A stretch of DNA of 64,000 nt from a virus, in IMG/VR virus record IMGVR_UViG_3300032285_003860, one strand, 5' to 3'. Every line of letters begins with the position of its first letter. Position 1 is the first letter of the stretch. Positions 470 to 53,998 of this stretch are shown in pieces. The notes below the pieces were generated by a model, which saw nothing but the letters and a program-made list of their open reading frames with translations, searched no databases and had not been told where the DNA came from. The position numbers and the translations under genes are program-made.

Positions 470-476
470 GTGTAAT
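470..476 (+). promoter_or_regulatory. GTGTAAT candidate late promoter
   Basis: recurrent intergenic motif, 25 nt before ATG 495. Confidence 0.7.
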
Positions 477-494
477 ATAAGATAAGATAAAATT

Positions 495-776
495 ATGTAT
501 TTTACAGGAACATTTCAGGATTATGAGAACAGGTTGCATCAATTTGCTTCTACCCCAGGTTCAGGAGAAACTGGAGTTCAGGCGTTTAGTGGTTTCAATC
601 AATTTATAATTGAAGGTTCAGGGTATTTGGCGGCAGGGTATACTGGGTTTTCTGGAACCATGATTACAGGAATGGGATACAAATGGGAGCGCGAAGCCAG
701 ATTATCCTACTATAGACTCAGTGGTGATGGCGCCCTTTTAGCAAGATCTTTACTTTCCACGGGAATCATCATATAA
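495..776 (+). CDS. small Ser/Thr-Gly-rich hypothetical (probable virion) protein
   Basis: 93 aa ORF after GTGTAAT motif; 10 of 15 Gly preceded by S/T like the structural proteins. Confidence 0.7.
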   Translation: MYFTGTFQDYENRLHQFASTPGSGETGVQAFSGFNQFIIEGSGYLAAGYTGFSGTMITGMGYKWEREARLSYYRLSGDGALLARSLLSTGIII

Positions 777-784
777 TAAATAAC

Positions 785-1258
785 ATGAAAAAAATCTTTA
801 TCTTATATGTATTGTTGGTTACCACTTTGTTTTGCAATGCAGGTCAATGGACCAATTATCCTGTTGCTACAACTTTAGCTGGCACAGAAACATTTTTATT
901 TGGTACAGCAACAAATAATCAATTGATTGTTGCCACCAACATGGCCAGTCAATTGGCAATATTTAGTTGTCATTTAACGACTTCCACCGCCACAAGCGGA
1001 ACAGTTACTGCCGTAACAAATTATCAAAGCGAAACCATTTATCTCTCTAATAGTTCAACAATTTCATCAATTACAATTGCTTTGCCCACAACAACAATAA
1101 TTGGACAAATTTTTCGCATACATTCTAAAGCTGCAGTTACAACTTTGAGCGTCACTGGCACTTCATTTGCAGATTCCGCAGTTACATCATTAACTGCAGG
1201 TCAAACAATTGGTTACCAAGCTCAAAATGCTTCAGGAGCCTATATCAGAATTCAATAA
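785..1258 (+). CDS. signal-peptide-bearing Thr-rich fibre-like protein
   Basis: MKKIFILYVLLVTTLFCNA N-terminus; C-terminal ITIALPTTTIIGQIFRIHS beta-rich segment resembling phage fibre domains. Confidence 0.65.
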   Translation: MKKIFILYVLLVTTLFCNAGQWTNYPVATTLAGTETFLFGTATNNQLIVATNMASQLAIFSCHLTTSTATSGTVTAVTNYQSETIYLSNSSTISSITIALPTTTIIGQIFRIHSKAAVTTLSVTGTSFADSAVTSLTAGQTIGYQAQNASGAYIRIQ

Positions 1259-1278
1259 ATACTTTATGCTATCTAAAT

Positions 1279-1324
1279 GCCAAGTCTCACCCTGAGTTAA
1301 GGATGAAGCTTGGCTTTCTTTTTT
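1279..1324 (+). terminator. bulged hairpin plus U-tract directly before phoH start
   Basis: GCCAAG(1279-84)...CTTGGC(1309-14) stem with inner TCA.CCT/AGG.TGA pairing, then TTTCTTTTTT. Confidence 0.5.
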
Positions 1325-2495: not shown

Positions 2496-2562
2496 ATGTA
2501 TGTGTATTAAAAAATATAATTAAATTTAATTATTTACTATACAATATATTAAACATTTCAAT

Positions 2563-3003
2563 ATGAATATCATTAATAAATTTTGCCACAACTGCGGAGT
2601 AAAATTGATACCCACCGCAAAGTTTTGTGGAGAATGCGGAACTTCTCAGGCATCTTTGGCTTCAAAACCACCTGAACCCGCCAAGCCACCACAGAAAAAG
2701 CAAAATCAATCATTTGAACCATTTGTTGCTCGTCGTAATGGCAACAGCGATGATGACGATGATGATGATAGTTACATTGACCATATTGACCATTTAAATA
2801 TATCAATATCTTCATTGGATGTTGATTTGGGTCCGCAAGGCAAACCAATAAAAGAAACATTTGCTGGAGTAATGTCTCATGGAGCTCAAATGGGTCAGCA
2901 CGCAGATTCATTTATCAGGCAGGTGGTTGATACAGGTCCAATTGATCAACAAGCATTTCTAAAACAGTTTCAGCAAGAGGCTGGTACTTTAAGAAATAAA
3001 TAA
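2563..3003 (+). CDS. zinc-ribbon domain protein
   Basis: N-terminal CHNCG...AKFCGECG; acidic poly-Asp tract. Confidence 0.8.
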   Translation: MNIINKFCHNCGVKLIPTAKFCGECGTSQASLASKPPEPAKPPQKKQNQSFEPFVARRNGNSDDDDDDDSYIDHIDHLNISISSLDVDLGPQGKPIKETFAGVMSHGAQMGQHADSFIRQVVDTGPIDQQAFLKQFQQEAGTLRNK

Positions 3004-3006
3004 TCC

Positions 3007-3687
3007 ATGACAAAAATTAAAAGGCCCAGGTTTGAGGATAGCCTTCCTTTAATCAATCAGGAAATAGCAAAGAGAAAATCTAAATGGAGTTTGTCATCAA
3101 TTGCTTGGATGGACTATGACGATGTATCCCAGATAATAAGAATACATATTCATCAAAAATGGAAACAATACAATCCAGAAAAACCATTGCAGCCTTGGAT
3201 TGGAATGATTATAACCAATCAAATCAGAAACTTAGTCAGAAATCATTATACAAATTATGCTCGCCCTTGTTTAAGATGTGACGCCGCAATAGATACAGAT
3301 GGTTGTAAAATTTATAAAGAACAATGTGAATCCTGCCCACTCTATGCTCATTGGAAAAAGAATAAACAACCTGCAAATTTTGTTAAACTGCCACTCTCAA
3401 TAGAAAATCATTCTCACGAAATACAAGAAATCTCCGAGCAATCAAGTTATTCACGAGATGATGAAAATAAATTGCACATCATAATGAAAAAGATTCTAAA
3501 AGCTGTAGAATATCAAGTTTACAAAGGTTTGTATATTGACCATAAAGAAGAATCTGATGTTGCTAAAAAGCTTGGCTTCATTTCCAATGAAAAAGGTCGC
3601 GCCCCAGGATACAGGCAACTAAAAAATATTCAAAAGTCTATTATTAATAAGGCTAAAAAATATATGAAAGAAGAGGGGCTAAATTAA
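3007..3687 (+). CDS. phage sigma-70/ECF-like sigma factor with Cys-rich insert (candidate late sigma)
   Basis: region-2-like DYDDVSQIIRIHIHQKWKQYNPEKPLQPWIGMIITNQIRNLVR; region-4-like EYQVYKGLYIDHKEESDVAKKLG; CLRC..C..C..C between them. Confidence 0.7.
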   Translation: MTKIKRPRFEDSLPLINQEIAKRKSKWSLSSIAWMDYDDVSQIIRIHIHQKWKQYNPEKPLQPWIGMIITNQIRNLVRNHYTNYARPCLRCDAAIDTDGCKIYKEQCESCPLYAHWKKNKQPANFVKLPLSIENHSHEIQEISEQSSYSRDDENKLHIIMKKILKAVEYQVYKGLYIDHKEESDVAKKLGFISNEKGRAPGYRQLKNIQKSIINKAKKYMKEEGLN

Positions 3688-3688
3688 T

Positions 3689-7558: not shown

Positions 7559-7565
7559 GTGTAAT
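7559..7565 (+). promoter_or_regulatory. GTGTAAT candidate late promoter
   Basis: 20 nt before ATG 7579. Confidence 0.72.
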
Positions 7566-12920: not shown

Positions 12921-12927
12921 GTGTAAT
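12921..12927 (+). promoter_or_regulatory. GTGTAAT candidate late promoter
   Basis: 14 nt before ATG 12935. Confidence 0.72.
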
Positions 12928-12934: not shown

Positions 12935-15628
12935 ATGAAATCAAGTTTAAATTGTGGAATAAAGGGTGCTTATAAGGTAGATTTATATAAAGGCGCTGGA
13001 AAAAACAGAGAATTTGTAGAAACTACCGAATGGTTTGACAATGATATTACCAACGTCGGGCTAAATTACCCATATTATTATCCATTTGCAAGTTGTTTCA
13101 TGTTTTTGTCTTTGGGTTCTGGGGCAGGTGGAAACAATGGAAACAGACAAAATTCTACAGGTTTAAATTTACCAAACAAAGGTTTTCCAGTTTTTAGCAA
13201 TATATATACAGGAGTTCCTCCAGCAGGTTACCCCACTGGAACTTATATTCAAAGCGGTCAATATATTGGATGGCAAGGTTATGAAATTGGTGGAGTTCAT
13301 AACGGCGGAAATTCAACAACAAGTTTAGCACAATCAACTTGCGGAACAAAATTTACTCCAAGTGGTATTAATTTTTATAGAGGTTGGACTATTCCTACTG
13401 GGGCGCAGCCAACCGAAGGAGCAGAAACTATTGCTGATCCAAATGGATTAGTTATACAGGGATTGATGGTGTCTCCTTCTAGTGGTACAGATGCAACAGG
13501 AAAATATGCATTTAGTCTTGTGGACAGAAGCATTACTATTCCAAGTGGATATACTGCAACAATTACTTATAATCTAAGTTTAAATTTTCAAGATTACGCA
13601 AATTCATATACATTCTTTTCTGGAATTTATGGAGGAGCCAATGGATATTTTAATACTGGAAATGCCTATTCTGGAATCAATAATTCGGAGCTTTCATTAT
13701 TGTCGGGATGGAGCAAACTTTCTGGTTTTTATAGAATGCTTTTCCCAGGCATAAACTTTGTTAATTATTGGGGAGGAGTCGAATCTTCTTCTGATAGAGG
13801 AAATGAATTAGAGCCTTATATTATACAATGTTTAAAGACTTGTTTTTATTTGTCGCCAGACATTGCGCAATTTGCCGTTAATAAATTTGGTCCACAAAAT
13901 CCAACTTATTTAACTGGAGAATCTCAAGCATATAATTCAAATGGCCTTGCTGGAAATTATTTTGAATCTGTATCAACAGCTCAAAATAATGGACAAGATG
14001 CTTCTTTACAATTGGATAGCGATGCAACTGCTGGAACAGTTTTTGGTACCCCAAATGATTATTATTATAATATAAAATCTTTAGCCCAGACAGCAAAAAT
14101 TTATCCAAATCTTCCTGCTAAAAATATAAGATTAACAAATACAACAGACATAGCTAATTATTCTGGATCAGTTGCCACTGGATCAAATGGTTCTGCATTG
14201 TTTTACAATAAAACATTCCTCAATGCAAGAAGCGCCTCAATTGATTTTGCAACGCCAGGAAAAAACGGATTCAATGATTCGTTGTATCCTAATTATGGAA
14301 ATATTTCAGTGTACTCTTCAATGTTAAGAAGAACTCCAATTCCTGTTGGAGGAGTATTGGCTAATACGGGGACTTCTGATGCAAATCCAAAAAGAGATAA
14401 AAAAATAACTAAATCTGCTTTATTTTCTCCCATTCAATCTTTGGGATATAATAGTAGGTTTTCAAGTTTAACATTAGGATACGGTTTACCACAAATTAAT
14501 TCTATACCATCAATTTATCCATATGTGGATTTTCTTTTCTTGGATTCTTCTGGTAGAGCAGCAGATATGCCTCACTATCGTTTGATTCCTGATATATATT
14601 TAACAAATCGCGGAACAGGAGTAGCTCAAGCAATTTTCTCTATCACAGGATCAGATGGTAAACAAATAAATTCTGCAAATAGATTTTCTAAAGCTTATGC
14701 TTTCATGGGTACAGGAGTAGATTATAATTCTTCTGGAATAGATATTATTAATAATTCAATGATTAATAGTAATAGTATTCTAGATACAAATAGTAGTTTT
14801 GTGCCTCCTGGTGCAAAACCTACTGGTTATCTTTTTCCTGGTCAAGTAATAAATTCAAACGTTAGCGGAAGCAACTCTTTTAATAATTATACTGGTTGGG
14901 GCGCAGTTTATGGTGTCGTTGGAAGTTCTGGATTTTATCAAAGTTTATATGATGCGTGTTTAATTGATTACGCTGCAAAACCTTGGCAAAATGGAAACTG
15001 GAGCGGATTCTCTGGAGACAATGGATTAAATTCTTATCCAAATGAAACTGGGGATCAATCAAAATTATTCTGGCCAATTAAACAAAGTGGAATTGGGTTA
15101 GCTATTTCTGGAATGCAATATTATTCACCTTATTTTAATACGATATTAAGCGATCCAAATGATGATTATGTTATAAAATCTGGGGCACAATATTTATTTG
15201 ATGTCACCGGAAGCAATGGGGCGTCTTTAATTGGGACGGCAAGCGTTTTTTCCGCTGTATTTCAAAGCGGGACAAAAGGTATAACTATTGCTTCGCTTGG
15301 TAATCCTATTACTGGATACGCTTTACGTTATCCAAGTTTTGCCGCATTAACTGGCTCCGGTTTAAACGCTATACAAATTTCTGCATTCAATAGTGGATCA
15401 TATAATATTTCTCCAACTAGATGGTCAAAACCATCAGGGGTAATTCATCATGTTGAATCACTTAAAATTGGTTCATCGCAAACTGGATATAGATTGTTAC
15501 CAAATTATGCTCTTCCAAACAATAATCAAGTTAATAATTATTCTCCTGTTATAGGCGGGGCATATCCTGCGTTGAGTATGCAAAATGGATTGCAAGTTTA
15601 TTTTGACTTCATTTGGTCTGGAGCATGA
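12935..15628 (+). CDS. large putative virion protein (paralogue of downstream gene)
   Basis: 897 aa, G/S/N/T/Y rich; N-terminus W.DN.ITN.G..YPY...FA.CF.FLS.GSG shared with next gene. Confidence 0.7.
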   Translation: MKSSLNCGIKGAYKVDLYKGAGKNREFVETTEWFDNDITNVGLNYPYYYPFASCFMFLSLGSGAGGNNGNRQNSTGLNLPNKGFPVFSNIYTGVPPAGYPTGTYIQSGQYIGWQGYEIGGVHNGGNSTTSLAQSTCGTKFTPSGINFYRGWTIPTGAQPTEGAETIADPNGLVIQGLMVSPSSGTDATGKYAFSLVDRSITIPSGYTATITYNLSLNFQDYANSYTFFSGIYGGANGYFNTGNAYSGINNSELSLLSGWSKLSGFYRMLFPGINFVNYWGGVESSSDRGNELEPYIIQCLKTCFYLSPDIAQFAVNKFGPQNPTYLTGESQAYNSNGLAGNYFESVSTAQNNGQDASLQLDSDATAGTVFGTPNDYYYNIKSLAQTAKIYPNLPAKNIRLTNTTDIANYSGSVATGSNGSALFYNKTFLNARSASIDFATPGKNGFNDSLYPNYGNISVYSSMLRRTPIPVGGVLANTGTSDANPKRDKKITKSALFSPIQSLGYNSRFSSLTLGYGLPQINSIPSIYPYVDFLFLDSSGRAADMPHYRLIPDIYLTNRGTGVAQAIFSITGSDGKQINSANRFSKAYAFMGTGVDYNSSGIDIINNSMINSNSILDTNSSFVPPGAKPTGYLFPGQVINSNVSGSNSFNNYTGWGAVYGVVGSSGFYQSLYDACLIDYAAKPWQNGNWSGFSGDNGLNSYPNETGDQSKLFWPIKQSGIGLAISGMQYYSPYFNTILSDPNDDYVIKSGAQYLFDVTGSNGASLIGTASVFSAVFQSGTKGITIASLGNPITGYALRYPSFAALTGSGLNAIQISAFNSGSYNISPTRWSKPSGVIHHVESLKIGSSQTGYRLLPNYALPNNNQVNNYSPVIGGAYPALSMQNGLQVYFDFIWSGA

Positions 15629-17334: not shown

Positions 17335-17341
17335 GTGTAAT
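17335..17341 (+). promoter_or_regulatory. GTGTAAT candidate late promoter
   Basis: 14 nt before ATG 17349. Confidence 0.72.
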
Positions 17342-17348: not shown

Positions 17349-17654
17349 ATGAATAAAACAGATAACGAAATAGATTTAATTGGTAATTTTAAAATAACGG
17401 CGAGCGATTCTGAGACTCCCATAACAATGGCTAAATCTCAATTGGCTGCAATTGCTGCAAAATCAGACAAGATTTTAGAAGCCTTGAATAAAATCCCAGG
17501 AGTAGAAGAAAAAATCAATGAGCCATGGTTATTTGCCAAAATTACTATTGCCGAGAATTACGTTAATACAGTTCTTAGTTATTTAATGTATCATGGTGAA
17601 GACCAGCATAAAGAATTTCATAATTTGCCAACTACTGAAGACAAAAAAGTGTAA
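17349..17654 (+). CDS. small helical protein, possible internal head protein
   Basis: MAKSQL...WLFAKITIAENYV..V..YL helical hairpin; directly before protease. Confidence 0.6.
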   Translation: MNKTDNEIDLIGNFKITASDSETPITMAKSQLAAIAAKSDKILEALNKIPGVEEKINEPWLFAKITIAENYVNTVLSYLMYHGEDQHKEFHNLPTTEDKKV

Positions 17655-17655
17655 T
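17649..17655 (+). promoter_or_regulatory. GTGTAAT candidate late promoter overlapping upstream stop codon
   Basis: 16 nt before ATG 17665; reads GTG TAA in the upstream gene. Confidence 0.68.
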
Positions 17656-21171: not shown

Positions 21172-21202
21172 AAACGGAAGGCCAAAAGCCTTCCGTTTTT
21201 TT
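21172..21202 (+). terminator. rho-independent terminator after MCP
   Basis: AAACGGAAGGC-CAAAA-GCCTTCCGTTT then T-run. Confidence 0.9.
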
Positions 21203-21234
21203 GTTTTTATATATTATATATTTTTTATTTTAAG

Positions 21235-21243
21235 TGATATAAT
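21235..21243 (+). promoter_or_regulatory. extended -10 (TGnTATAAT) host-type promoter candidate
   Basis: TGATATAAT between the terminator and ATG 21269. Confidence 0.4.
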
Positions 21244-21268
21244 ACAATATATAAATCAATTAATATTT

Positions 21269-21619: not shown

Positions 21620-21644
21620 TTGTATAATTATTTTTTGCTGATAT

Positions 21645-21651
21645 GTGTAAT
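21645..21651 (+). promoter_or_regulatory. GTGTAAT candidate late promoter
   Basis: 15 nt before ATG 21660. Confidence 0.72.
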
Positions 21652-21659
21652 AATACTAT

Positions 21660-24600
21660 ATGTCAGCATTTGATTCGACGATAAGGCTAAGGCAAGCAAA
21701 CCAACCTGAATTTTCTGGATACACTGTTCAAATTATCCAGAATTATCTTTCTGGTAATCCGCCCATTCCCTCTACTGGAGTTCTTTCTGGTGTATTTTAT
21801 CCATTAGTTACTAACCCAAGCGGTTTTGTAACGAGCTCGCAGACAGGAGTATTTAAAACTCAAACAGATTTAAATAGTCTCTATACTCAAATTCTTTATT
21901 ATGTTGGTGAGAATTATTATCCAGATTCAAATCCAAGTGGTTATATAAATAGCGCCAATATTAGTGGGATTAGTGGTAATTTAAATAATATAGTTTATAC
22001 AACAGGAAATCAAACAATTTCTGGAATTAAAACTTTTGCAACAGGAATAAATGTAAATGGTGATATTACAATCAATAGTAATTATTTAAGGGGCATTAAT
22101 AGCAGTAATTATATTCAATTAGATGATGGTGGGGAAAATCTTAATTTACGCTCATTTAATGATATAAATATTAGTACTGATTCCGCTGGTGAAGGCGGTA
22201 TTTATTTTAATCTTTGGGATAACGATGCATCTTATTTTTTTAATTATAATGGTGATTTTGGTAATGCAACTAGTCCCGCAAATGCTAAAAATTGGATTGG
22301 CTATGATTATTTCTTGGCTGGAACAACTCAAACTAATAATAATGGAAATTCTTGGGTTTGTGCAAACTTTGGAAATTTTGGCATTGGAAACTCATCGCCT
22401 CAATATAAATTAGATGTTTATGGAAATCTTCATACATTAAATGAAATTGTTGCGGGTGGAGATATTATTGCGGGTGGAAATATAATTGGAAGTGGCAATA
22501 CTACTTTAGATTTAATAAATGTAAATCGAATTGTCGGGCCAAACGCTTCTCAATTATCAATAGACAATGTATCTAGCGCTTCCGCTACATTCATGACTGG
22601 AGTTAGTAATGCCCCATGGGCTTATAAAGCAACTGGAGCAAATTATCTATTTAAAATTTACGCATATAAATACGCTAATGATAATACAAGAGTATATTCT
22701 GCTTCATCTTATAATCTTTCAATTAATCCAGGAACTAGTCAACAAAGTGGTTGGTTTGATATAGAAATAAATCCAGTAAATAATGCAGCTGGTTATAAAG
22801 TAGTTGTTACTGATCCAACTTTTGGAGCAACAGGGAATTACTATTTAGATGTTAATAATACATCAATATATCTTGGAACAATTGACCCAGGTTCCTATCC
22901 TCCAGGCTATTATGTGCCACCTGGTTATGATTATTTTAATAATACAAGCTATCAATCACAAAGCCCAATGATTGTATCTCCAAGTTTTCTTTATTATTCG
23001 ACTGGAAATCTTCAATTTTATAGTAAAAATTTATATTTTAAAGATTCTAAATTTGGTATAAATACATATTCTCCTCAATATTTATTAGATGTAAATGGTT
23101 CTGGAAATTTTAGGAGTGGATTGTATGTAAGTGGAATTGCAGTTTTAACAGGGGTTCCTCCTGTAACAGTTACAAATGCAGTTTATACAACTGGAAACCA
23201 AAGTATTTCTGGAATCAAAACTTTTTTAACTGGCATGATTGTGAGTGGGTCTTTGATCCAAGGAAATGGCAATATTGCGAGTGGTCTTTATTCCCACGCA
23301 GAAGGATCTGCTACAATTGCAAGTGGACAATATTCTCATGCCGAAGGTGGAACAACAATTACCAAGGGACCATACAGTCACGCAGAAGGAGTATACTCAA
23401 TTGCTTCTGGATATGGTTCTCATGCTGAAGGATTTACTACCATATCCTCTGGGGCCTATTCTCATGCAGAAGGCTGGTTAGCAATTTCAAGCGGAGATTA
23501 TTCTCATGCAGAAGGATATGGCACATTTTCAGTTGGTTTTGCTTCCCATGCAGAAGGTTCAAATAATTATTCAAGGGGCGCAACATCTCATGCTGAAGGT
23601 GGAGGAACAACGGCATTTGGGCAAAGCTCTCATTCAGAAGGCACATATACATATGCAAGTGGGGTTTCTTCTCACGCAGAAGGAAATAATACATTTGCTA
23701 TTGGTCAAAATTCACACTCAGAAGGAATTAGTACAACTGCAAATGGATCAGTTTCTCATGCAGAGGGCGATAGTACAGAAGCAAATGGATATGGCTCTCA
23801 TGCAGAAGGTATTTCGACAGTTGCAAATGGAAATTCTTCTCATTCTGAAGGAGGATATAACTTTGCAAATGGAGAGGAGTCTCATGCAGAAGGCGACTCC
23901 AACTTCGCAGTTGGATTTGCCTCTCACGCAGAAGGTTCATATACATATGCAAATGGAGATTATTCTCATTCTGAAGGAAGTTTTACGCAAGCAAACGGAA
24001 CACAATCTCATTCAGAAGGGTATTCTACATATGCATATAAAGATGAATCTCATTCAGAAGGATTTGTAACAACTGCTTCTGGACTTTATTCACATGCAGA
24101 AGGTATTTATACTATAACTATCGGAGCTGGGTCTCATGCAGAAGGCATTTCGACAATTGCTTCTGGAAATTACCAACATGTTGGTGGAAAATTTAATACC
24201 CCTGATATTACTTCATTATTAATAATTGGCAATGGTACTGGAACCAGTGCTCGATCAAATATTTTAACTGTTGACTCTAATGGATTAAATGTTTATGGCT
24301 CTGGTAATTTTACAGGGGGCCTTTATATAAATGGAATACCAGTCTCTACTGGGGGATCATCTTCTTCTGCCGCAGGAGTTTCTCAATTAAATACATTAAC
24401 TGGAAATTTGTCAATCATAGGAGTGAGTGGAGTATCTGTTTATATAAGTGGAACCAATGGAATAATTGTTTCCGGAAACTTTAATACTGGATCTTTTGTT
24501 ACAACTGGTCAAACTGGTAATTTCGTTACAACAAGCCAGACTGGAGTTTTTGCAACGAGTGCCAATTTAATTTCTACTGGATCAAATTTACAAGGTCAAA

Positions 24601-26390
24601 TTTCAAGCCTTAGTGGAACACTCACAGGAAATTATGTTCTAACAACAACTGCTACTGGCATTAGCGGAACATTAACTACATCCATTGCGTCAACTGGCTC
24701 TAATCTTCAGGGGCAGATTAATAGTTTAAGTGGCAAAGTTGTTTTTATAACTGGCAATCAAACAATTTCGGGGATTAAAACTTTTGCGGGTACTGGAATT
24801 TTTAATAATAGTGTCGGTATTGGTACTGCAACACCAGTTTATCCACTTCATATTCAGACTCCAGGAGTTGGTGGCATATTTGGAGCTTATCCTACTATAG
24901 CTCTCCTTGGTAATTCTAAGAATGCAAATATTCATATTAATGGAGATGGTAGTGTTGGAAGTCGCAATGCAGCTTCATTAACATTAGCTGCAAGAGCACA
25001 AGATGAATCTGGTCCTTATGGATACTATTTAGGTACAGATAACGATGGTAAGTTTCGTATTAGCCAGATGACTACTGTAGATGAAGCAGGATATACAGCA
25101 GCCAAAGATGCTGGAGTTGCAGGCTCATTAACTCTCGATACCGCCGGCAATCTTGGCATAGGTAATACTTCTCCAGCTTATACTTTAGATGTTAATGGTG
25201 CAATTGGTACTTCAAATCTTGTTGGTGGTGGGAGTTATTTAAATTTTAATGATTCTACTACTGATCAATATGGGAAAACTCCAACTTTAAAGTTTAATAT
25301 TTTAAATAGTATAATTTTTGATGCTGGACAAGATGCAGGATATGGCGATATTATATTGAATACTAGTTCGTCATCAAATAAAAGAGTTGGTATTGGAACT
25401 GCTTCTCCAGAACAAACTCTACATATCTATGGCGCAGTCCTTATCGAAGGCAACACTACCCCAAGAATTTATGCCAAATCTAATGACGGTGGCAATAGTT
25501 TAGTATTTAATAGATATGGTGGTCAAGAAAGCTATGCTTTATATTTTGGAGAAATGGCTGACACGGGGCCTGATATTTTTAGAACTCAAGGTGGTATTTA
25601 TTTTGGATGTCAACCTGATGATAGTTCGCAAAAAGGATTATTCGTTTCTGCTGCTACCGCAGGAAATGATAGAAAAATTGGTGTTAACTTTACCGGTAAT
25701 GCAGCTTTAAATTATACCCTAGATGTAAATGGTTCAGGAAATTTCAGGAGTGGATTGTATGTTAGTGGCATATCAGTTTTAACGGGTTCCACAAGTTCTT
25801 TTGCAACAAGCGCAAATTTAATCTTAACAGGTTCAAATTTACAAAGTCAAATCACTAGTTTAAGTGGACAAGTTGTCTATACAACTGGTAACCAAACAAT
25901 TTCTGGAGTTAAAGCTTTTATCTCTCGTCCAACTGTTAATGGCACAGGAGTATTATTAAGTGGTGAAGCATCTGCTGCCACAGTTTCAAATGTGGTCTAT
26001 ACCACTGGCAATACTACGCAAACGATCAGCGGAAATTTAACTGTTACTGGTCATTTCTCTGCTAATACAAAATCTTTCTTGATTGATCACCCAACACAAG
26101 TTGGGAAAAAATTACAATACGGCGTTCTTGAGGGTCCAGAACATTCTGTTTATTTGAGAGGTAAAACAAATAATAGCTTTATTCAATTCCCCAATTATTG
26201 GAGCGGATTGGTAGATCAAAATTCTATAACTGTGTCCCTCACCCCAATTGGTAATTATCAAAAACTTTTCGTTGAAGAAGTTAATATTTCTGGAGTAAAA
26301 GTTGGTAAAAATTATTTTGAAGACATCAATTATTATTATCATATATTTGCAGAAAGAAAAGATGTTCCCAAATTGGAGGTTGAGATTTAA
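21660..26390 (+). CDS. long fibre/adhesin protein with FDSTIR anchor, YadA-head-like SHAEG repeats and C-terminal chaperone-like domain
   Basis: 1576 aa; GIG/GIN..P.Y.LDV fibre repeats; 21x SH(A/S)EG; C-terminal KSFLIDHPT...LQYGVLEGPE...RG...AERKD. Confidence 0.85.
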   Translation: MSAFDSTIRLRQANQPEFSGYTVQIIQNYLSGNPPIPSTGVLSGVFYPLVTNPSGFVTSSQTGVFKTQTDLNSLYTQILYYVGENYYPDSNPSGYINSANISGISGNLNNIVYTTGNQTISGIKTFATGINVNGDITINSNYLRGINSSNYIQLDDGGENLNLRSFNDINISTDSAGEGGIYFNLWDNDASYFFNYNGDFGNATSPANAKNWIGYDYFLAGTTQTNNNGNSWVCANFGNFGIGNSSPQYKLDVYGNLHTLNEIVAGGDIIAGGNIIGSGNTTLDLINVNRIVGPNASQLSIDNVSSASATFMTGVSNAPWAYKATGANYLFKIYAYKYANDNTRVYSASSYNLSINPGTSQQSGWFDIEINPVNNAAGYKVVVTDPTFGATGNYYLDVNNTSIYLGTIDPGSYPPGYYVPPGYDYFNNTSYQSQSPMIVSPSFLYYSTGNLQFYSKNLYFKDSKFGINTYSPQYLLDVNGSGNFRSGLYVSGIAVLTGVPPVTVTNAVYTTGNQSISGIKTFLTGMIVSGSLIQGNGNIASGLYSHAEGSATIASGQYSHAEGGTTITKGPYSHAEGVYSIASGYGSHAEGFTTISSGAYSHAEGWLAISSGDYSHAEGYGTFSVGFASHAEGSNNYSRGATSHAEGGGTTAFGQSSHSEGTYTYASGVSSHAEGNNTFAIGQNSHSEGISTTANGSVSHAEGDSTEANGYGSHAEGISTVANGNSSHSEGGYNFANGEESHAEGDSNFAVGFASHAEGSYTYANGDYSHSEGSFTQANGTQSHSEGYSTYAYKDESHSEGFVTTASGLYSHAEGIYTITIGAGSHAEGISTIASGNYQHVGGKFNTPDITSLLIIGNGTGTSARSNILTVDSNGLNVYGSGNFTGGLYINGIPVSTGGSSSSAAGVSQLNTLTGNLSIIGVSGVSVYISGTNGIIVSGNFNTGSFVTTGQTGNFVTTSQTGVFATSANLISTGSNLQGQISSLSGTLTGNYVLTTTATGISGTLTTSIASTGSNLQGQINSLSGKVVFITGNQTISGIKTFAGTGIFNNSVGIGTATPVYPLHIQTPGVGGIFGAYPTIALLGNSKNANIHINGDGSVGSRNAASLTLAARAQDESGPYGYYLGTDNDGKFRISQMTTVDEAGYTAAKDAGVAGSLTLDTAGNLGIGNTSPAYTLDVNGAIGTSNLVGGGSYLNFNDSTTDQYGKTPTLKFNILNSIIFDAGQDAGYGDIILNTSSSSNKRVGIGTASPEQTLHIYGAVLIEGNTTPRIYAKSNDGGNSLVFNRYGGQESYALYFGEMADTGPDIFRTQGGIYFGCQPDDSSQKGLFVSAATAGNDRKIGVNFTGNAALNYTLDVNGSGNFRSGLYVSGISVLTGSTSSFATSANLILTGSNLQSQITSLSGQVVYTTGNQTISGVKAFISRPTVNGTGVLLSGEASAATVSNVVYTTGNTTQTISGNLTVTGHFSANTKSFLIDHPTQVGKKLQYGVLEGPEHSVYLRGKTNNSFIQFPNYWSGLVDQNSITVSLTPIGNYQKLFVEEVNISGVKVGKNYFEDINYYYHIFAERKDVPKLEVEI
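23292..24146 (+). repeat. coding tandem repeat, 21 x 42 nt (14-aa SH[AS]EG units)
   Basis: first core at 23292, last at 24132, exactly 20 x 42 nt apart. Confidence 0.92.
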
Positions 26391-26391
26391 T

Positions 26392-28405: not shown

Positions 28406-28410
28406 AATAT

Positions 28411-28668
28411 ATGTACCAAAAAAGACAATTTATGATCTTTAATGTTTCTGAACTAGAAACAATTGATTTTAGCGAGGTATTAGAGTCTTCTGCCGAAACA
28501 GTAAGAAAAAGCGTTGATGGGACCAAAACATTTGTTAAATGGGAGTCTGAAGATGACTCTATACCCCCTTCAGTAGATATTTTATTAACAAAAGAAGGGC
28601 CATATACTTATGATGAGATAGTTAGTATTTTAGCAACCAGTGAATGGTCACGCCGTAATACAGTGTAA
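28411..28668 (+). CDS. small acidic phage protein (possible fibre assembly factor)
   Basis: 85 aa; IDFSEVLE...RKSVDGTKTFVKWE...GPYTY.EI..IL...EW. Confidence 0.6.
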   Translation: MYQKRQFMIFNVSELETIDFSEVLESSAETVRKSVDGTKTFVKWESEDDSIPPSVDILLTKEGPYTYDEIVSILATSEWSRRNTV

Positions 28669-28669
28669 T
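28663..28669 (+). promoter_or_regulatory. GTGTAAT candidate late promoter overlapping upstream stop codon
   Basis: 16 nt before ATG 28679; reads GTG TAA in the upstream gene. Confidence 0.68.
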
Positions 28670-32214: not shown

Positions 32215-32221
32215 GTGTAAT
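32215..32221 (+). promoter_or_regulatory. GTGTAAT candidate late promoter
   Basis: 18 nt before ATG 32233. Confidence 0.72.
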
Positions 32222-32484: not shown

Positions 32485-32521
32485 GTCTTTTAAAATATTA
32501 GAAAAACAATATCCATTTGCC

Positions 32522-32528
32522 GTGTAAT
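32522..32528 (+). promoter_or_regulatory. GTGTAAT candidate late promoter
   Basis: 15 nt before ATG 32537. Confidence 0.72.
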
Positions 32529-32536
32529 ATACTTAT

Positions 32537-32899
32537 ATGGCAAATGTATATGATATTTCAATAGATCAAGGCTCCAGTTTAAACTTAACCTTAACAGCGA
32601 CAGACTCGGCTGGGGCTTATTTAAATCTCTCTGGATATGCTGCCAGAGGCAAGATTAAGTATGGTTATGGTTCTACCGGTTATTTGCTTGATATCAATCC
32701 CACAGTTGATTCCAGTTACGTTAGCGGATTAATTAATATCTCTCTTAGTGCAACCAGTACTTCTCTGCTTCCCATCACAAAAGCAGTCTATGACATAGAA
32801 GTTTATACTACGGGAACAATTGGAGCAATTGCCAGTGGCTATACTTTTAAAGTACTAAAGGGATATGCCAATGTTTCCCCAGAAGTAACAACAAGTTAA
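32537..32899 (+). CDS. virion adaptor protein (BppU-N/Ig-like)
   Basis: YDISIDQGS...NLSGY.A..KIK...I.LSA..T..L....VYDIE pattern typical of phage fibre-attachment domains. Confidence 0.65.
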   Translation: MANVYDISIDQGSSLNLTLTATDSAGAYLNLSGYAARGKIKYGYGSTGYLLDINPTVDSSYVSGLINISLSATSTSLLPITKAVYDIEVYTTGTIGAIASGYTFKVLKGYANVSPEVTTS

Positions 32900-34763: not shown

Positions 34764-35930
34764 ATGAAAAAATGGTTTTTAACAGTTTTTTTGGTGATGA
34801 CGGCATTTTTATTAAATGCTCAATATAGTCCTATAACCATCAATCCAAGTGGTAATGTGGTAAATACAAATGCTACTATAACATTTTCTAATTATTCTTT
34901 TTTTAAGACCAATGTATATTTTGGCGGTAATACTTACACGACCAATCATGCTTATGACGCATCTGGTAATCTGCTAGATCCACAGGCTAATGAGTACGTG
35001 ACTGCATCATTTGTTCGAAGCATTTTGAATAATGGTCAGTTCTTATATGGCACTCCAAACGCTACAAATAATATAGGATTTACTAATTATGATGGTACGA
35101 CAAACACAATAGCTTTGCTGTTTGGGACGACGGCTCCGACCAATTACAGTAAACAATTCTCCAACTTTGTGGCTGGTACATATTGGGCATCAGTCATCTC
35201 TACGAATACCTTTCAGTCCGTGTCTGGTCCATATGTGAATGACATATATGTCAATCTTGACTCCGATAAAGCAAATCCGAATCCTATTCCTACATTCACA
35301 ATGATGCCAGACATCTATGCGACCTATGACAGAACCAATCTGATACTGCTTGCCGCCGGCTCTGCACAATCAATTGTCTATCACGATACGAATCTATACA
35401 CGTGGATTCAATCTTCTCCGCAATATACATCTACAAATGCGGCTGGATTTTACATCGTCAGACGCGTGAAGTGCGATTCATTTACAGTTGGTGGTGGTAA
35501 TGGCAAGCCCATCATCAACGTATTTGGTGGATCAAACTACATCACATCCGTTTCATTTAGTACGCCAGTCGTCATCAATGCAAACTACTACGGCGCATTT
35601 ACTGGCACTCATATTGGAGATGGTTCAGCATTAACAAATCTTAACCCAGCAAATTTAATTTTTAATGCTACTACACAAACAACAGCGGTATTAAATTTTA
35701 ATTTAAATGAGATTGCCATTACCAACAATATTACATTCACTTCAGCCACTGGAGTTGCATCAAATGGGTATGCTAAATATATTGGCGCAACTGTTTTTGG
35801 CACTGGTATTACTGTTGCTTGGCCTCAAATTTGGAGCCCAAACAACACCAATTTAGTAGTGCTAACAAATGGCATTGTGGCTTTTAAATGCTTTGGAACC
35901 AATGTGTTTGCAGCTCCTTATCAGCCATGA
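34764..35930 (+). CDS. signal-peptide-bearing Thr-Asn-rich fibre-like protein
   Basis: MKKWFLTVFLVMTAFLLNA-Q; 16 TN dipeptides; FTG..IGDGSALTNL fibre motif. Confidence 0.7.
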   Translation: MKKWFLTVFLVMTAFLLNAQYSPITINPSGNVVNTNATITFSNYSFFKTNVYFGGNTYTTNHAYDASGNLLDPQANEYVTASFVRSILNNGQFLYGTPNATNNIGFTNYDGTTNTIALLFGTTAPTNYSKQFSNFVAGTYWASVISTNTFQSVSGPYVNDIYVNLDSDKANPNPIPTFTMMPDIYATYDRTNLILLAAGSAQSIVYHDTNLYTWIQSSPQYTSTNAAGFYIVRRVKCDSFTVGGGNGKPIINVFGGSNYITSVSFSTPVVINANYYGAFTGTHIGDGSALTNLNPANLIFNATTQTTAVLNFNLNEIAITNNITFTSATGVASNGYAKYIGATVFGTGITVAWPQIWSPNNTNLVVLTNGIVAFKCFGTNVFAAPYQP

Positions 35931-37077: not shown

Positions 37078-37084
37078 GTGTAAT
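37078..37084 (+). promoter_or_regulatory. GTGTAAT candidate late promoter
   Basis: 15 nt before ATG 37093. Confidence 0.72.
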
Positions 37085-37092: not shown

Positions 37093-37602
37093 ATGAAAGT
37101 CGTTGATATTGCCAATGAAATTTACTTAGAAAATGCTTCTCCAAGCGATACAAGCATTTCCTCAATTGCTTTTTGGATTCGCTCTAGCGTGGGCAAGTTA
37201 AATAATTTAATTTATGAGAGTTTTGTTGTGGACGCTGCCTCTTTAGAGATTGTGGATGGTTCTGGAAAAGAGATTTCTACTCTTGCTGCCGCTATCATAA
37301 AAATGATGTATAAAGTCTATAGAATAGACTTAGACATTCGCAGCAATATGTCTTCTCTTACAAATGACACTGTTTTAGAAGCAGTAGATGAAAATTTTAA
37401 AATCAAAAGAATCAATCGCAGCGAAGTATTAAAAACTCTTGCAACATTAAAAAAAGATTCATTAAAAGAATTAACTGACATTGTTCATTATTATCGCAGT
37501 TATAATGGTGTGCCCGACGCAATTAATGGCGATGATACTCAATGGGGTTATTATCCAGGCACTTCAACTCAATACGTCAGAAGCGTGGTTGGTCCAGTAT
37601 AA
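37093..37602 (+). CDS. putative head-tail adaptor
   Basis: 169 aa, helical; first of four neck-sized genes before the tail tube (synteny). Confidence 0.5.
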   Translation: MKVVDIANEIYLENASPSDTSISSIAFWIRSSVGKLNNLIYESFVVDAASLEIVDGSGKEISTLAAAIIKMMYKVYRIDLDIRSNMSSLTNDTVLEAVDENFKIKRINRSEVLKTLATLKKDSLKELTDIVHYYRSYNGVPDAINGDDTQWGYYPGTSTQYVRSVVGPV

Positions 37603-38724: not shown

Positions 38725-38731
38725 GTGTAAT
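38725..38731 (+). promoter_or_regulatory. GTGTAAT candidate late promoter
   Basis: immediately after upstream stop; 14 nt before ATG 38739 and 57 nt before TTG 38782. Confidence 0.7.
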
Positions 38732-38738: not shown

Positions 38739-38816
38739 ATGGATACAGGAATTTTTACAATAAAATATAAGGAGGTTTCAATTGATTCCACAGCTAGACA
38801 ACCAAATATTAAGTAA
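38739..38816 (+). CDS. 25-aa upstream ORF overlapping the next gene's RBS and start
   Basis: MDTGIFTIKYKEVSIDSTARQPNIK*; ATG at the usual 14-nt spacing from the promoter motif. Confidence 0.35.
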   Translation: MDTGIFTIKYKEVSIDSTARQPNIK

Positions 38817-40625: not shown

Positions 40626-40657
40626 AAACCCTGGCTTCGGCCAGGGTTTTTTTGTTT
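40626..40657 (+). terminator. rho-independent terminator after tail tube
   Basis: AAACCCTGGC-TTCG-GCCAGGGTTT plus T-run (UUCG tetraloop). Confidence 0.92.
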
Positions 40658-40674: not shown

Positions 40675-40681
40675 GTGTAAC
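40675..40681 (+). promoter_or_regulatory. GTGTAAC variant late promoter
   Basis: after terminator, 30 nt before ATG 40705, with AAAGGA RBS in between. Confidence 0.6.
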
Positions 40682-42842: not shown

Positions 42843-42849
42843 GTGTAAT
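42843..42849 (+). promoter_or_regulatory. GTGTAAT candidate late promoter
   Basis: 37 nt before ATG 42880. Confidence 0.68.
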
Positions 42850-50472: not shown

Positions 50473-50490
50473 GTATTATAATATAATTAT

Positions 50491-52323
50491 ATGGCAAATT
50501 TTGTAGGTTTAATAACTGGCACACTGGGATACGAAAAAAGGAAAGAGTTTTTCGGTAATGCCCTTATGCTCAGGGAGGTTGACACATACAACTATGAAAT
50601 TTATAGCACTGATTTTGCCACCCAAAATGCAGATGTAATTCAAAATAAAATACAGCAGCAATTTTCTAGTGTTTATTCTGGAGATGTTAATGTTAAAGTA
50701 TTTAATACTCAAAACACTTATCAATTTCCTAGCGATAGCTTAAGAGCTTCAAGATTTTCGGTAACCGTTGAAATTAAATTGCCATACGCCAATTTATCCA
50801 GTGACTTTACTGAATTGGCTGGAAATTATTACAAGGGTTTAGATTCAACATTCTTTACTAACTATGGCAAATATTTGTTGGATTTTAAAGAAGATTTTAC
50901 CTTTGCTACAAATGCAAATGGAAATAGAGAATTTGGACATAATGTTTCTTTTGGATTACAAACTGGTTGGTCAGGAGTCAATTCTCAAGCAGGAAGAAAA
51001 TCTTATGCGCAGCAAGTAGTTAGCGGCATCTTTAGTCAAGACAAAAATACCACATTTGGTATAGATACAATGGTTGGTAATGTTCTTTATGTCGGGGACA
51101 GTGGAGTGTTTAGAAATTACTTTTCAGAATCTTATGACTTGATGAAAAACTCTTATAGTTTTTCAAGAAAAAGAGAGCAATTGCCCATTGATTCAACAAA
51201 TTCCATTTATAATCTTAATTATGCAATTAATTTAAATACAGATGGTACTGTTGATGTTTCAGAGAAAGCTTCCACAATGGCAAAGATTAGTTTCAATTCC
51301 GCAAAGACTGATTTTGATAATTTTTATACTGGGTCATATGGTCGCTGTAATGTTATGTTTAATAAATTTTATAATTCAAACATTATGCTGCAAGACACGC
51401 AGTATTCCACCTATGGAATAAATGCTGTTTCTGGGTTAATAAATTCTCCTTTAAAATTAACAAGATTTTACGACACAAATAGTATGCAGTTAAATTATGA
51501 TGTCACTTATACCAACAACCCAAACTATTCTGGGCCAGGAACAATACAATCAGAAACTCTTGAATTTAATATTGATAAATATAATAAAGTCGAGGTTTCT
51601 CATGCCTTTGATTTTATATCTAATAGGATTACGGGCAGCGCCGCAACATTTTCTAGTTTAATTAATTCTGCTATTTCATCAACTGGACCAACAGTAAGTG
51701 GGTATTATAGCTCAAATTTTTCTAATATCAATACAATTTTCCCAAAAATTAATTTAATTAAAAGCACGGCGAGTTATCCAAATATCAAAACAAAAGCAAT
51801 GGCCAAGTTTGAATATAGTAACAATCCCACTTATTTTGTTACATATAATGGCATAGTTTTTAAAATTTTAGATTATGATATTGAAAAGAAATCTCCCCCA
51901 GATTTAATTAAAGAATATAAAATTGTTAATCGCCCCACTAAAAAGTCAGTAATGACTTATGAATATCAATCAGAAAGGGGTATATTGTCGGTCAGCGTAA
52001 AAGCTTCAATTGGCAAACAAAATAATCAATTTTATCCAAACACTAATGGGACTTTTTCGCCATTGAATGATGATTCAAATAGTAATAATTTGCAACTATA
52101 TCAATATTTAAATGCCCTTTATCAATACGCTGGACAATTGTTCCTGGCTCAATTTGGCAATCCAACGGTGGCATTTAATTGGTTTATTTCTGATTCTAGT
52201 TATTCTTTTAGTTCTGAAGGCGAATTAATGGTAAAAATAGATTATAATTATACATTAAAGAAGAGATCCAATGTTTTACAAAGCAATCAAAGGCCCACCA
52301 CAGTCCCAGTAGGTGGTTATTAA
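50491..52323 (+). CDS. putative distal tail / tail-tip protein
   Basis: beta-rich 610 aa directly after tape measure. Confidence 0.55.
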   Translation: MANFVGLITGTLGYEKRKEFFGNALMLREVDTYNYEIYSTDFATQNADVIQNKIQQQFSSVYSGDVNVKVFNTQNTYQFPSDSLRASRFSVTVEIKLPYANLSSDFTELAGNYYKGLDSTFFTNYGKYLLDFKEDFTFATNANGNREFGHNVSFGLQTGWSGVNSQAGRKSYAQQVVSGIFSQDKNTTFGIDTMVGNVLYVGDSGVFRNYFSESYDLMKNSYSFSRKREQLPIDSTNSIYNLNYAINLNTDGTVDVSEKASTMAKISFNSAKTDFDNFYTGSYGRCNVMFNKFYNSNIMLQDTQYSTYGINAVSGLINSPLKLTRFYDTNSMQLNYDVTYTNNPNYSGPGTIQSETLEFNIDKYNKVEVSHAFDFISNRITGSAATFSSLINSAISSTGPTVSGYYSSNFSNINTIFPKINLIKSTASYPNIKTKAMAKFEYSNNPTYFVTYNGIVFKILDYDIEKKSPPDLIKEYKIVNRPTKKSVMTYEYQSERGILSVSVKASIGKQNNQFYPNTNGTFSPLNDDSNSNNLQLYQYLNALYQYAGQLFLAQFGNPTVAFNWFISDSSYSFSSEGELMVKIDYNYTLKKRSNVLQSNQRPTTVPVGGY

Positions 52324-52326
52324 TTT

Positions 52327-53991
52327 ATGACAAACAGTATAACAGTATCATATAATGGCACAGCTTTAAATCCAACGCCATTAATTAATTATTCAAAAAC
52401 GCCAATTAATTTTGGTTATATCTATGGATACAATACAGATATAACTTTAGATGGTCTTTATTCTGGTATATTAACCACTGGAGCAACAATATCTGCTTTA
52501 ACAACCATATTTGCAAATCAATTTAAAACGTTGAGCGTTGATACAGACACAACTACAAATCTTTATAAGTGGGATAATGTAACTGTTGATTCTATATCAA
52601 TTGATCCGAACCCCTATTACTCAGGCAGCTTTGTCAAATATTCTATTAAATTAAAATCTTATGATTTCCCTAGTGGGGTTATCGACCCTTCGAATGAATA
52701 TTCTTTTACCCAAAATGATGATGGAACAGTAAATGTTAATCATAAAATTAGCGCAAGAGGCGTAAGAAATAATGTTGGCGCATTTGCAAATGCAATCGCT
52801 TTTGTTGGTCAGTTTACTGGAAGAGACCCATATTCAAATTGTGCTCCTTATTTTGTTCCAAATGGGAGCGGGGTATTATTAAGCTCTTCAGAAAGTATAA
52901 ATCGCGCAGAAGGCATATATAGCGTTAACGAAGTTTATAAATATATAACTGGAGACACAACAAGTCCTTATTTTCATACTACCAATTTAAGTATTGATGA
53001 TAGCATTGAAGCAGATTTTAGAAAAATAAGTTACGAGTTAAAAATACAGGGCTCACCAATATCAAAAAATTTAGAAAACGTTATTTCTACTTTAAATTAT
53101 GATCTTCAGTCAGACATTGGAGATGAGTTTGGGTTTGATGTTTCTAACTGGGTCAAAGATACTTATTCTGCTACCATTGATTCTGGTTCAGCATCAATTG
53201 ATATAAAAGTTGGTTACATTTCTGGTGCATCAATAAAAACTGGATTTTTTGATTATGATGTGGTTTGGGATAATGACAGACTAACAAATACAGAAAACTG
53301 GAAAGTAAATGGGGACTTTAGATGTTTTGGACCATTAGAATATAAAAGAAATCAATTGGATAAATTTAAAACGGCTAATAATATAAATTTATCGGGAAAT
53401 GACGCTTGGCGTCCTTATTTATCTGGATTAATAACTTCTTCTCCAATTTATTCGACATTGCATGACTCTTTTAAGAGGTTGTCTTATAATTCCAAAGTTG
53501 TCGTAGACGAAAATCAAAAATTAGCCACATTAAGATTGTCTTTGGAATTAAATGCATCATATGAACCCGCAGGCACTTCTGATTTAAGATATTCTTTAGA
53601 AGGCTCTCCATCAAAGTGGATATATGAATTACTCCCTTCTGCAAATATTGAAGGTTCTTTTGTTATTCAAGACTTACAGTTGCAAACACAGCCAAAACAA
53701 AAATTTACAATTTCAGCAAAAACATATAATAAAGATGCCGCCGCCTCGACTATCTATGGATATATGGGTGGATTAACTTCAACATATGTAAATTCTGGCA
53801 CAGATACAGATGTGGGCGCATTTTTAATTGATGAAAATTTACGCACTGGCGTTTATGATGTTTCTTTGTCTAAAGAATTTTTAGGAAATGATAATGCCTC
53901 AATTTCTTCTACTTTGTTAAAATTGCAGGCAATTGGTACATATTCTGGAACTGTTGCAGTTCGTCCTGGAGGATATAATTTTGGTTATTAA
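52327..53991 (+). CDS. putative tail-tip protein, paralogue-like to upstream gene
   Basis: N.DGTV.V and SES motifs shared with 50491. Confidence 0.55.
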   Translation: MTNSITVSYNGTALNPTPLINYSKTPINFGYIYGYNTDITLDGLYSGILTTGATISALTTIFANQFKTLSVDTDTTTNLYKWDNVTVDSISIDPNPYYSGSFVKYSIKLKSYDFPSGVIDPSNEYSFTQNDDGTVNVNHKISARGVRNNVGAFANAIAFVGQFTGRDPYSNCAPYFVPNGSGVLLSSSESINRAEGIYSVNEVYKYITGDTTSPYFHTTNLSIDDSIEADFRKISYELKIQGSPISKNLENVISTLNYDLQSDIGDEFGFDVSNWVKDTYSATIDSGSASIDIKVGYISGASIKTGFFDYDVVWDNDRLTNTENWKVNGDFRCFGPLEYKRNQLDKFKTANNINLSGNDAWRPYLSGLITSSPIYSTLHDSFKRLSYNSKVVVDENQKLATLRLSLELNASYEPAGTSDLRYSLEGSPSKWIYELLPSANIEGSFVIQDLQLQTQPKQKFTISAKTYNKDAAASTIYGYMGGLTSTYVNSGTDTDVGAFLIDENLRTGVYDVSLSKEFLGNDNASISSTLLKLQAIGTYSGTVAVRPGGYNFGY

Positions 53992-53998
53992 GTGTAAT
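53992..53998 (+). promoter_or_regulatory. GTGTAAT candidate late promoter
   Basis: immediately after stop; 30 nt before ATG 54022 with AAAGGA RBS. Confidence 0.72.

Follow-up and report, generated by a model that had tools for sequence, protein, structure and literature searches.

We analysed a 64,000-nucleotide (nt) stretch of viral DNA, IMG/VR record IMGVR_UViG_3300032285_003860 (the window), in which the heptamer GTGTAAT recurs upstream of genes and a gene at positions 3007-3687 (+ strand) encodes a Cys-rich sigma factor. Judged from the DNA sequence, GTGTAAT is very probably a promoter, and there is a good probability that it is read by the 3007-3687 sigma factor. Taken as a whole, it is likely that GTGTAAT is a single-box, -10-type promoter for virion and other middle/late genes, read by this phage sigma factor. 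The result appears solid, widespread and testable; it would be mechanistically analogous to known systems, and it rests on inference. No relevant description of GTGTAAT or GTGTAA as a phage promoter was found in the literature.

The window has 35% GC and is nearly all one + strand phage gene block. The full genome exceeds 110 kb, and a sister contig with 91% DNA identity (G001 from IMG/VR; L026-L028 and L001), which reaches about 50 kb upstream, stands in for the part outside the window. Early and replication functions map to the upstream region of G001 (approximately 1-47000), which holds genes for ThyX, a DNA ligase, a GHKL ATPase, a clamp-loader-like AAA protein and UvdE, together with a block of small open reading frames (ORFs) on the minus strand. 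More distant relatives were retrieved with the sigma factor as the query, which gave 25 IMG/VR loci (45-99% identity) and 8 contigs from metagenome-assembled genomes (MAGs; 36-53%).

GTGTAAT lies directly upstream of + strand genes

An earlier note on this DNA had listed 14 + strand positions for GTGTAA(T/C), all in or at the edge of gaps before + strand genes. All 14 were verified, with 13 copies of GTGTAAT and one of GTGTAAC (at 40675), and their placement was as described. Counted on both strands of the whole window, GTGTAAY is unremarkable (16 copies versus 11.6 expected). Each of the 13 + strand GTGTAAT copies, in turn, lies no more than 45 nt upstream of a + strand gene start, a zone that makes up 3.3% of the window (binomial P = 5.6e-20). 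Within this upstream zone no other 7-mer was as enriched as GTGTAAT, and AGTGTAA was placed there in nine of nine cases. The motif occupies 11 of the 14 late-block gaps of at least 21 nt.

Inside coding sequences, the note had counted a single + strand GTGTAA. There are two, at 43313 (GTGTAAG) and 59205 (GTGTAAA), and in both the seventh base is neither T nor C. Among the weaker variants that had been proposed, GTGTATT at 2502 was retained, since its GTGTA core is kept in relatives; ATGTAAA at 18551 was dropped, since it lies inside a coding sequence and ATGTAWW is common in coding sequences. ATGTAAT-type words are common inside genes and show no enrichment before gene starts, and the first G therefore belongs to the signal.

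Eight of the 14 copies are followed by an ATG after 7, 7, 9, 8, 9, 8, 8 or 11 nt, and none of these eight genes has a well-placed Shine-Dalgarno (SD) sequence. The copies are at 12921-12927 (7 nt before ATG 12935; 897 amino acids [aa]; conserved in relatives), 17335-17341 (7 nt before ATG 17349; 101 aa), 17649-17655 (9 nt before ATG 17665; 530 aa), 21645-21651 (8 nt before ATG 21660; 1576 aa), 28663-28669 (9 nt before ATG 28679; 408 aa), 32215-32221 (11 nt before ATG 32233; 83 aa), 32522-32528 (8 nt before ATG 32537; 120 aa) and 37078-37084 (8 nt before ATG 37093; 169 aa). At 17649 and 28663, GTG-TAA does double as the final sense codon and stop codon of the preceding gene (17349-17654 and 28411-28668, respectively). 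Inverted repeats bracket the motif and start codon at 21637-21670 and 32513-32550 (RNA fold z, -3.6 and -5.9); these two repeats would mask the AUG in read-through transcripts only, not in those initiated at the motif.

The remaining copies have leaders of 13-50 nt, three of them with AAGGA or AGGAGG. The copy at 470-476, 18 nt before ATG 495 (a 93-aa gene followed by genes 785 and 1310, the latter phoH), is the first + strand signal after a strand switch and is kept upstream of the orthologues in eight loci; a terminator considered upstream of it received no support from folding. The copy at 7559-7565 lies just after the gene for the large terminase (TerL), 13 nt before ATG 7579 (813 aa), and the site is conserved in 16 loci, as GTGTATT in L007 and L009. 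GTGTAAC (40675-40681) lies 23 nt before ATG 40705 (115 aa), which has an AAGGA SD-like site, and 25 nt downstream of a strong intrinsic terminator (40626-40649, + strand; 10-bp stem with 6 GC, followed by a T-run). The copy at 42843-42849 precedes ATG 42880 of the tape-measure gene by 30 nt, and that at 53992-53998 abuts the stop codon at 53991 and lies 23 nt before ATG 54022 (598 aa), with an AGGA/AAGGAAA SD-like site. The copy at 38725-38731, which abuts the stop codon at 38724, is present as listed, but the ATG 7 nt downstream opens just a 25-codon ORF and not a gene; the gene that follows probably starts at TTG 38782, behind AGGAGG, with a 50-nt leader. The 25-codon ORF (38739-38816) overlaps this TTG start and may be a leaderless upstream ORF. 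The GTGTATT variant at 2502-2508 (+ strand) lies in a divergent gap, 54 nt before ATG 2563 of a zinc-ribbon gene that is followed by the sigma gene.

The motif is conserved in sigma-bearing relatives

Orthologues of genes 495, 7579 and 12935 keep GTGTAA(T/A) upstream in most loci (up to 16), with varying flanks and ATG distance, and GTGTATT replaces the motif at some sites in L007, L009 and the L014 group. An unbiased word search ranked GTGTAAT first to third in G002 (100 kb), G003 (124 kb) and G005 (56 kb; sigma factor 45% identical). In three MAG-binned contigs (sigma factor 41-48% identical) the top word was GTGTAA (L048 and L050) or GTGTAT (L049), and GTGTAA ranked fourth in L051 (42%). 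There was no clear motif signal in G004 and L053, which are short or divergent contigs. The enrichment check in relatives that had been proposed therefore placed the motif at or near the top of the upstream words in most of the sigma-bearing contigs examined, and its strand follows gene orientation there. The word ACACACA, enriched in G003, was rejected as one (AC)n run and not a motif. This run of about 14 AC units lies at approximately 2490-2540 of G003 (L029) on the minus strand, directly upstream of a gene's ATG, and may be a slippage-prone tract that influences expression.

Spacing to start codons suggests a -10-type element

The spacing of 7-9 nt between motif and ATG, which the earlier note missed, is the most informative feature. 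Over approximately 0.6 Mb of window and relatives, 75 of 111 GTGTAAT copies have an ATG that opens an ORF of at least 50 codons within 60 nt. The spacing peaks at 7-11 nt with a sharp lower limit of 7 nt, whereas control words gave 15-25% and a flat distribution. We compared this with host-type promoters. G001 contains 34 matches to TTGACW-N16-18-TAnnnT, nearly all of them in its early/replication part and co-oriented with genes, and many have a TG extended -10. An ORF-opening ATG follows the -10 hexamer by 5-9 nt (mode, 6) in 23 of these 34 sigma70-type promoters, versus a background of 12%, and across the same set of genomes the ATG spacing of host-type -10 boxes peaks at 6-7 nt. Going by this geometry, the phage habitually puts its start codons where transcription from canonical promoters is expected to begin.

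GTGTAAT occupies the same place relative to start codons as the sigma70-type -10, about 1-3 nt further upstream. The view of GTGTAAT as a -10-type element draws mainly on this shared geometry. The two promoter classes are partitioned, with the sigma70 type in the early/replication part of the sister genome and GTGTAAT in the + strand block of the window; TTGACW-N16-18-TAnnnT has zero matches on the window's + strand. As the note had stated, the motif has no common -35 element: at 63 non-redundant sites from the window and relatives, no position between 45 and 15 nt before the motif reaches 0.13 bit, and no word is enriched there. It is fairly probable from the spacing that about half of the sites give leaderless or near-leaderless transcripts (leaders of 1-3 nt), and the geometry of the sister genome suggests genome-wide leaderless early genes in a phage of 35-38% GC.

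The same positions could be explained if GTGTAAT acted in RNA, either as an endonuclease processing site before start codons or as a translation-initiation signal that replaces the SD sequence. The motif is strand-specific and near start codons, few genes here have a good SD sequence, and processing 7-9 nt before the AUG would also yield near-leaderless mRNAs. However, the motif lies anywhere from 7 to 50 nt before the start codon, and the long-spacer sites have SD sequences of their own, which is unlike a ribosome-binding signal. Copies also follow the strong terminator (40675) and strand switches (470 and 2502), positions at which little if any sense RNA from upstream would be available for processing. 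Furthermore, the geometry mirrors that of the -10 boxes of early promoters, the 14 sites share no common RNA structure (mean z, -0.6), and no Rfam match was obtained. We consider a role in RNA improbable.

We give almost no credence to a DNA signal apart from transcription (a strand-specific nick, primase or methylase site) or to an artefact of TAA stops beside AT-rich gaps. The motif does contain TAA, and two copies serve as a real stop; TAA is used in this way at only 2 of the 14 sites, however, and neither ATGTAAT nor the reversed word is associated with gene starts. In the large phage phiCD211, which is unrelated but has a terminase of distant similarity, the same method returned only SD words at the top, and GTGTAA was not enriched (1/22). 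The sharp ATG spacing of 7-11 nt and the co-orientation with genes tie the motif to gene expression.

The 3007-3687 gene encodes a two-domain sigma factor

If GTGTAAT is a promoter, the candidate reader encoded in the window is the 3007-3687 protein. It is a sigma factor of 226 aa, comprised of a region 2 domain (sigma2, residues ~3-84), a Cys-rich linker and a region 4 domain (sigma4, residues ~148-226), an architecture that had been proposed earlier and is borne out by Pfam and fold matches. Residues 34-80 matched Pfam Sigma70_r2 (PF04542) with 26.1 bits (cut-off, 24), and a weak profile match to region 2 of CnrH was seen; there was no Pfam region 4 (r4_2) or Sigma70_ECF match. A search of 5.8 billion proteins gave 341 homologues at 90% clustering, nearly all unnamed, and Sigma70_r2 is also annotated on most of the 120 homologues listed. 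The ESM Atlas clusters of the protein are 100% viral, and at least 17 language-model-similar clusters have 50 or more members. The protein has no PHROG, and tblastn against 50,697 deposited phage genomes gave no match.

Structure prediction, another check that had been suggested, agreed with this assignment. The AlphaFold2 model, built from a 46-sequence alignment, has sigma2 and sigma4 folds and a mean predicted local distance difference test score of 74, lowest in the linker. Nearly all Foldseek matches in PDB and BFVD were sigma factors, with weak whole-chain E-values (SigE N-terminal domain 8b3z; TM-score, 0.65). In an exhaustive structural scan, model residues 3-84 matched the sigma2 fold of RpoE (5uxx_C; Z, 8.3; root mean square deviation, 2.4 over 76 aa), a SigR N-terminal fragment and the SigC Pribnow-box domain. 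Model residues 144-226 matched the sigma4 fold (3mzy_A; Z, 9.5), including SigD4 and sigmaE region 4 on -35 DNA (2h27_D; Z, 8.1). The linker carries C88, C91, C100, C107 and C110, of which four are invariant and one is 90% conserved, and forms a small hairpin in the model; it looks like a zinc ribbon or knuckle that may bind zinc. Conservation within the family peaks in the last sigma2 helix and the residues after it (Q72, N75, R78, N79, N83, R86, P87 and C88).

Directly upstream of the sigma gene, 2563-3003 (+ strand) encodes an acidic protein of 146 aa with an N-terminal zinc ribbon (Pfam Zn_Ribbon_1, 29.6 bits) and a poly-Asp stretch. This protein is fast evolving (32-56% identity). Its gene adjoins the sigma gene in all relatives with at least 67% sigma identity and was not detected beyond these; it is a possible candidate for a sigma partner or an anti-sigma70 factor. 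Downstream, the order of the sigma gene, g3689 (which encodes a 367-aa protein that may be the small terminase), the nuclease gene and the TerL gene is kept in all relatives, including those whose sigma factor is only 36% identical. In the divergent gap before the sigma operon (2496-2562), the GTGTA core, located right after the start of the opposite gene, is kept in 9-10 of 12 relatives (L002-L014 orthologues); positions 6 and 7 vary, and the sequence is never GTGTAAT. The conserved sequences of this gap suggest weak host-dependent expression of the sigma operon combined with positive feedback or autoregulation.

Probable assignment of the sigma factor to the motif

Motif and sigma factor travel together in every relative examined with enough sequence. 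Five relatives were scanned for Sigma70_r2 ORFs; in four of them (G001, G002, G005 and G008) the Cys-rich sigma factor is the sole one, and all four carry the motif.

The promoter could instead be read by another factor: a phage sigma factor or RNA polymerase-binding protein encoded outside the window, a host alternative sigma factor or a remodelled host sigma70. The window covers only a part of the genome, G003 carries additional Sigma70_r2 ORFs, the co-occurrence of sigma factor and motif is confounded by phylogeny, and TGTAAT is one position apart from TATAAT. Sigma70 promoters need an A at -11, however; the motif has a G in place of this essential base and lacks a T at -7 when placed in the extended -10 register, which argues against plain sigma70. 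Nor is there an RNA polymerase-like Pfam match among the proteins tested. The Cys-rich sigma gene is the only one of its kind found in the four motif-bearing genomes named above, and its most invariant helix stands at the position that reads the -10 element in gp36 of phage phiEco32, matching the invariance of the GTGTA core. Another reader is thus unlikely in our estimate, and the 3007-3687 sigma factor is preferred.

Several observations weigh against this assignment or against the promoter reading as a whole. All sigma carriers belong to one viral clade with conserved synteny, so that the co-occurrence is a clade trait and not independent evidence. No change in the motif core tracks sigma divergence: GTGTA is invariant down to 41% identity, while positions 6 and 7 relax. 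The two further Sigma70_r2 ORFs of G003 are at 116177-116344 (+ strand) and 109501-109710 (- strand), in open frames of 180 and 210 aa, and with a genome of which the window is only a part, another factor could be the reader. The sigma operon is without a clear host-type promoter, having only a conserved TAnAAT block, nearer the ATG than the GTGTA core, and no -35. The depletion of GTGTAAT in coding DNA is marginal and suggestive only, with zero copies inside + strand coding sequences versus a mean of 6.6 for words of the same composition, 10 of 210 of which also have zero. The motif precedes non-structural genes as well, namely the phoH unit (470) and, in the sister genome, two genes of the nucleotide-metabolism region, and "middle/late" is therefore a safer description than "late." Lastly, promoter function, start site, timing and binding are inferred, and all members of the clade are uncultured.

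Comparison with known promoter systems

The closest known case is gp36 of phiEco32. The middle/late promoters of this phage have a single conserved box, tAATGTAtA, in which AATGTA is centred at -11.5, and transcription starts 6-8 bp downstream (PMC8948821, PMC12276001). gp36, helped by gp79, stacks on -12T and -11G and reads -11G specifically (PMC8948821, PMC12276001). Like gp36, the protein studied here is a two-domain phage sigma factor of ~215-226 aa with a sigma2-like N-terminal domain, a long linker and a sigma4-like C-terminal domain, and its model matches gp36 chain 9m7y_F over both domains (Z, 7.0). The promoters resemble each other in having one conserved box with a TGTA core and a G where sigma70 needs -11A. 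When the two are aligned on TGTA, GTGTAAT would span -13 to -7, a putative register and start that fit the spacing found here. The earlier note had credited the sigma factor with a new specificity. It would have its own box in GTGTAAT; a wholly new specificity is not upheld, because the TGTA core is common to the gp36 promoters (PMC12276001, PMC8948821).

The two systems also differ. There is no detectable sequence homology between the sigma factors (hhalign with the 46-sequence profile; probability, 0.07; E, 0.69). The sole aligned segment, which is not significant, pairs the invariant helix with the gp36 helix that carries Y83, R84, W90, S91, S94 and N95, the -10-reading residues of gp36 (PMC12276001). 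In the present system TGTA must be preceded by G and not A, five conserved Cys residues mark the linker, and start codons lie close behind the promoters. A gp79-like cofactor was not identified, and none was sought by structure; the 2563-3003 protein is a candidate by position only. Finally, gp36 makes specific contacts with bases of the -35 region (PMC12276001), whereas no -35 conservation is seen here. This is a further point against the reading of GTGTAAT as a single-box promoter, since an invisible -35 box is then no proof of a one-box mechanism.

T4 gp55, with its TATAAATA late promoters, is similar in being a phage sigma factor that redirects host core RNA polymerase to a single -10-type box before virion genes, and the model's sigma2 domain has a structural match in 7d7d_F, from a complex that contains gp55 (Z, 7.1). 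gp55 consists of sigma2 alone and depends on gp33 and the sliding clamp gp45 (PMC2988020); the protein studied here keeps sigma4, no clamp coupling is evident, and the box differs. gp47 of Salmonella phage 7-11 is likewise a divergent phage sigma factor whose own consensus contains GTAA and precedes late genes. Its late promoters are bipartite (GTAAtg-N16-aCTA; PMC8948821), in contrast to the single conserved box here.

ECF (group 4) sigma factors share the minimal sigma2-linker-sigma4 layout and give the best full-length fold matches (SigL 6dv9_F, Z 9.1; SigH; SigE). ECF promoters are bipartite (-35 AAC and -10 CGT types), and an anti-sigma gene usually accompanies the ECF gene. Here there is no ECF Pfam match, no -35 over the 63 sites and no recognisable anti-sigma factor among the neighbours, so the protein is ECF-like by fold only; to our knowledge, a Cys-rich, zinc-ribbon-like linker is not a usual ECF feature. 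The sigma factor thus belongs to none of the gp36, gp55 and ECF families, and a phage sigma factor with its own -10-type promoter is a known kind of system.

The putative leaderless transcripts also have precedents. Leaderless mRNAs are common in mycobacteria and other Actinomycetota, in Deinococcus-Thermus and in archaea (PMC4633059), and the sites here share with them a -10 box set for a start at the A of AUG, no SD sequence and ATG as the only start codon. They differ in being predicted from spacing alone, in a phage of 35% GC, and at both host-type and phage-type promoters.

Proposed mechanism and significance

In the mechanism that we propose, host core RNA polymerase carrying the phage sigma factor would bind GTGTAAT (family core, GTGTA) through the sigma2 domain. 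The likely reader is the invariant polar helix ITNQIRNLxRNxYxNY (residues 69-84), which is placed like the -10-recognition helix of gp36. The DNA would melt a few bases downstream, and transcription would start 7-9 nt past the motif. At about half of the sites this start would be the A of the ATG or 1-3 nt earlier, giving leaderless or near-leaderless mRNAs; the other sites would give longer leaders (11-50 nt), several with SD-like AAGGA or AGGAGG. No -35 box would be used, and sigma4 would probably just dock on the beta-flap. Early and replication genes would rely on strong TTGACW-N17-TAnnnT promoters of the host type that share this leaderless geometry, and the sigma factor would switch the polymerase between the two promoter classes. 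The weak GTGTAWW upstream of the sigma operon suggests positive feedback.

We put forward a broader view only tentatively. In this clade of uncultured aquatic phages, the expression programme may be nearly fully leaderless, with early and late promoters both starting at the AUG, and the switch between them made by a sigma family that is not represented in the deposited phages searched. The zinc-ribbon-like module would replace sigma3/3.2 and may read the upstream GTG as a substitute for an extended -10, or dock on the polymerase.

If confirmed, this would be the third well-defined class of phage sigma factor with a one-box promoter, after T4 gp55 and phiEco32 gp36, and the class is widespread in environmental phages. 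The promoter would be a compact, 7-bp orthogonal part, and it would allow transcription units and temporal classes to be called automatically in uncultured phage genomes whose proteins are mostly unannotatable. The system would also offer a natural case for how a sigma factor reads G at -11 and for the role of a zinc module in a sigma2-sigma4 linker. If true, it further points to leaderless translation as a genome-wide phage strategy.

Other features of the window

Other genes recognised in the window are those for PhoH (start, 1310), an ERCC4-like nuclease with an N-terminal C2H2 finger (4785), TerL (5705), a collagen-repeat, tail-fibre-like protein of 813 aa (7579), a BppL_N/YadA-repeat protein of 1576 aa (21660) and a tape-measure protein of 2530 aa (42880). 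Most of the remaining proteins had no match in Pfam or PHROGs. A 20-kb megablast and the sigma tblastn gave no close relative among deposited phages, and the TerL matches, from Clostridioides and Bacillus phages, are only 25% identical. The MAG bins that contain sigma homologues are scattered (Flavobacteriales, Pseudomonadales, Cellvibrionaceae and Halobacteriovorax) and look like bins with mis-binned phage contigs; host assignment from them was rejected.

In the tail region, same-strand genes overlap by 43-89 nt (37542-37602, 35888-35930, 15585-15628 and 26302-26390); these overlaps may be mis-called starts or programmed frameshifts, for example in a tail chaperone pair (37093/37542). Tandem paralogues occupy 26302-28668 (genes 26302, 27099, 27731 and 28411), with a conserved C-terminal coding motif just before each following start. 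Downstream of the probable capsid operon lies a strong bidirectional terminator (21172-21198), and in the interval that begins with it (21172-21268) the next gene, 21269, is preceded by TGaTATAAT, a host-type extended -10, and not by GTGTAAT.

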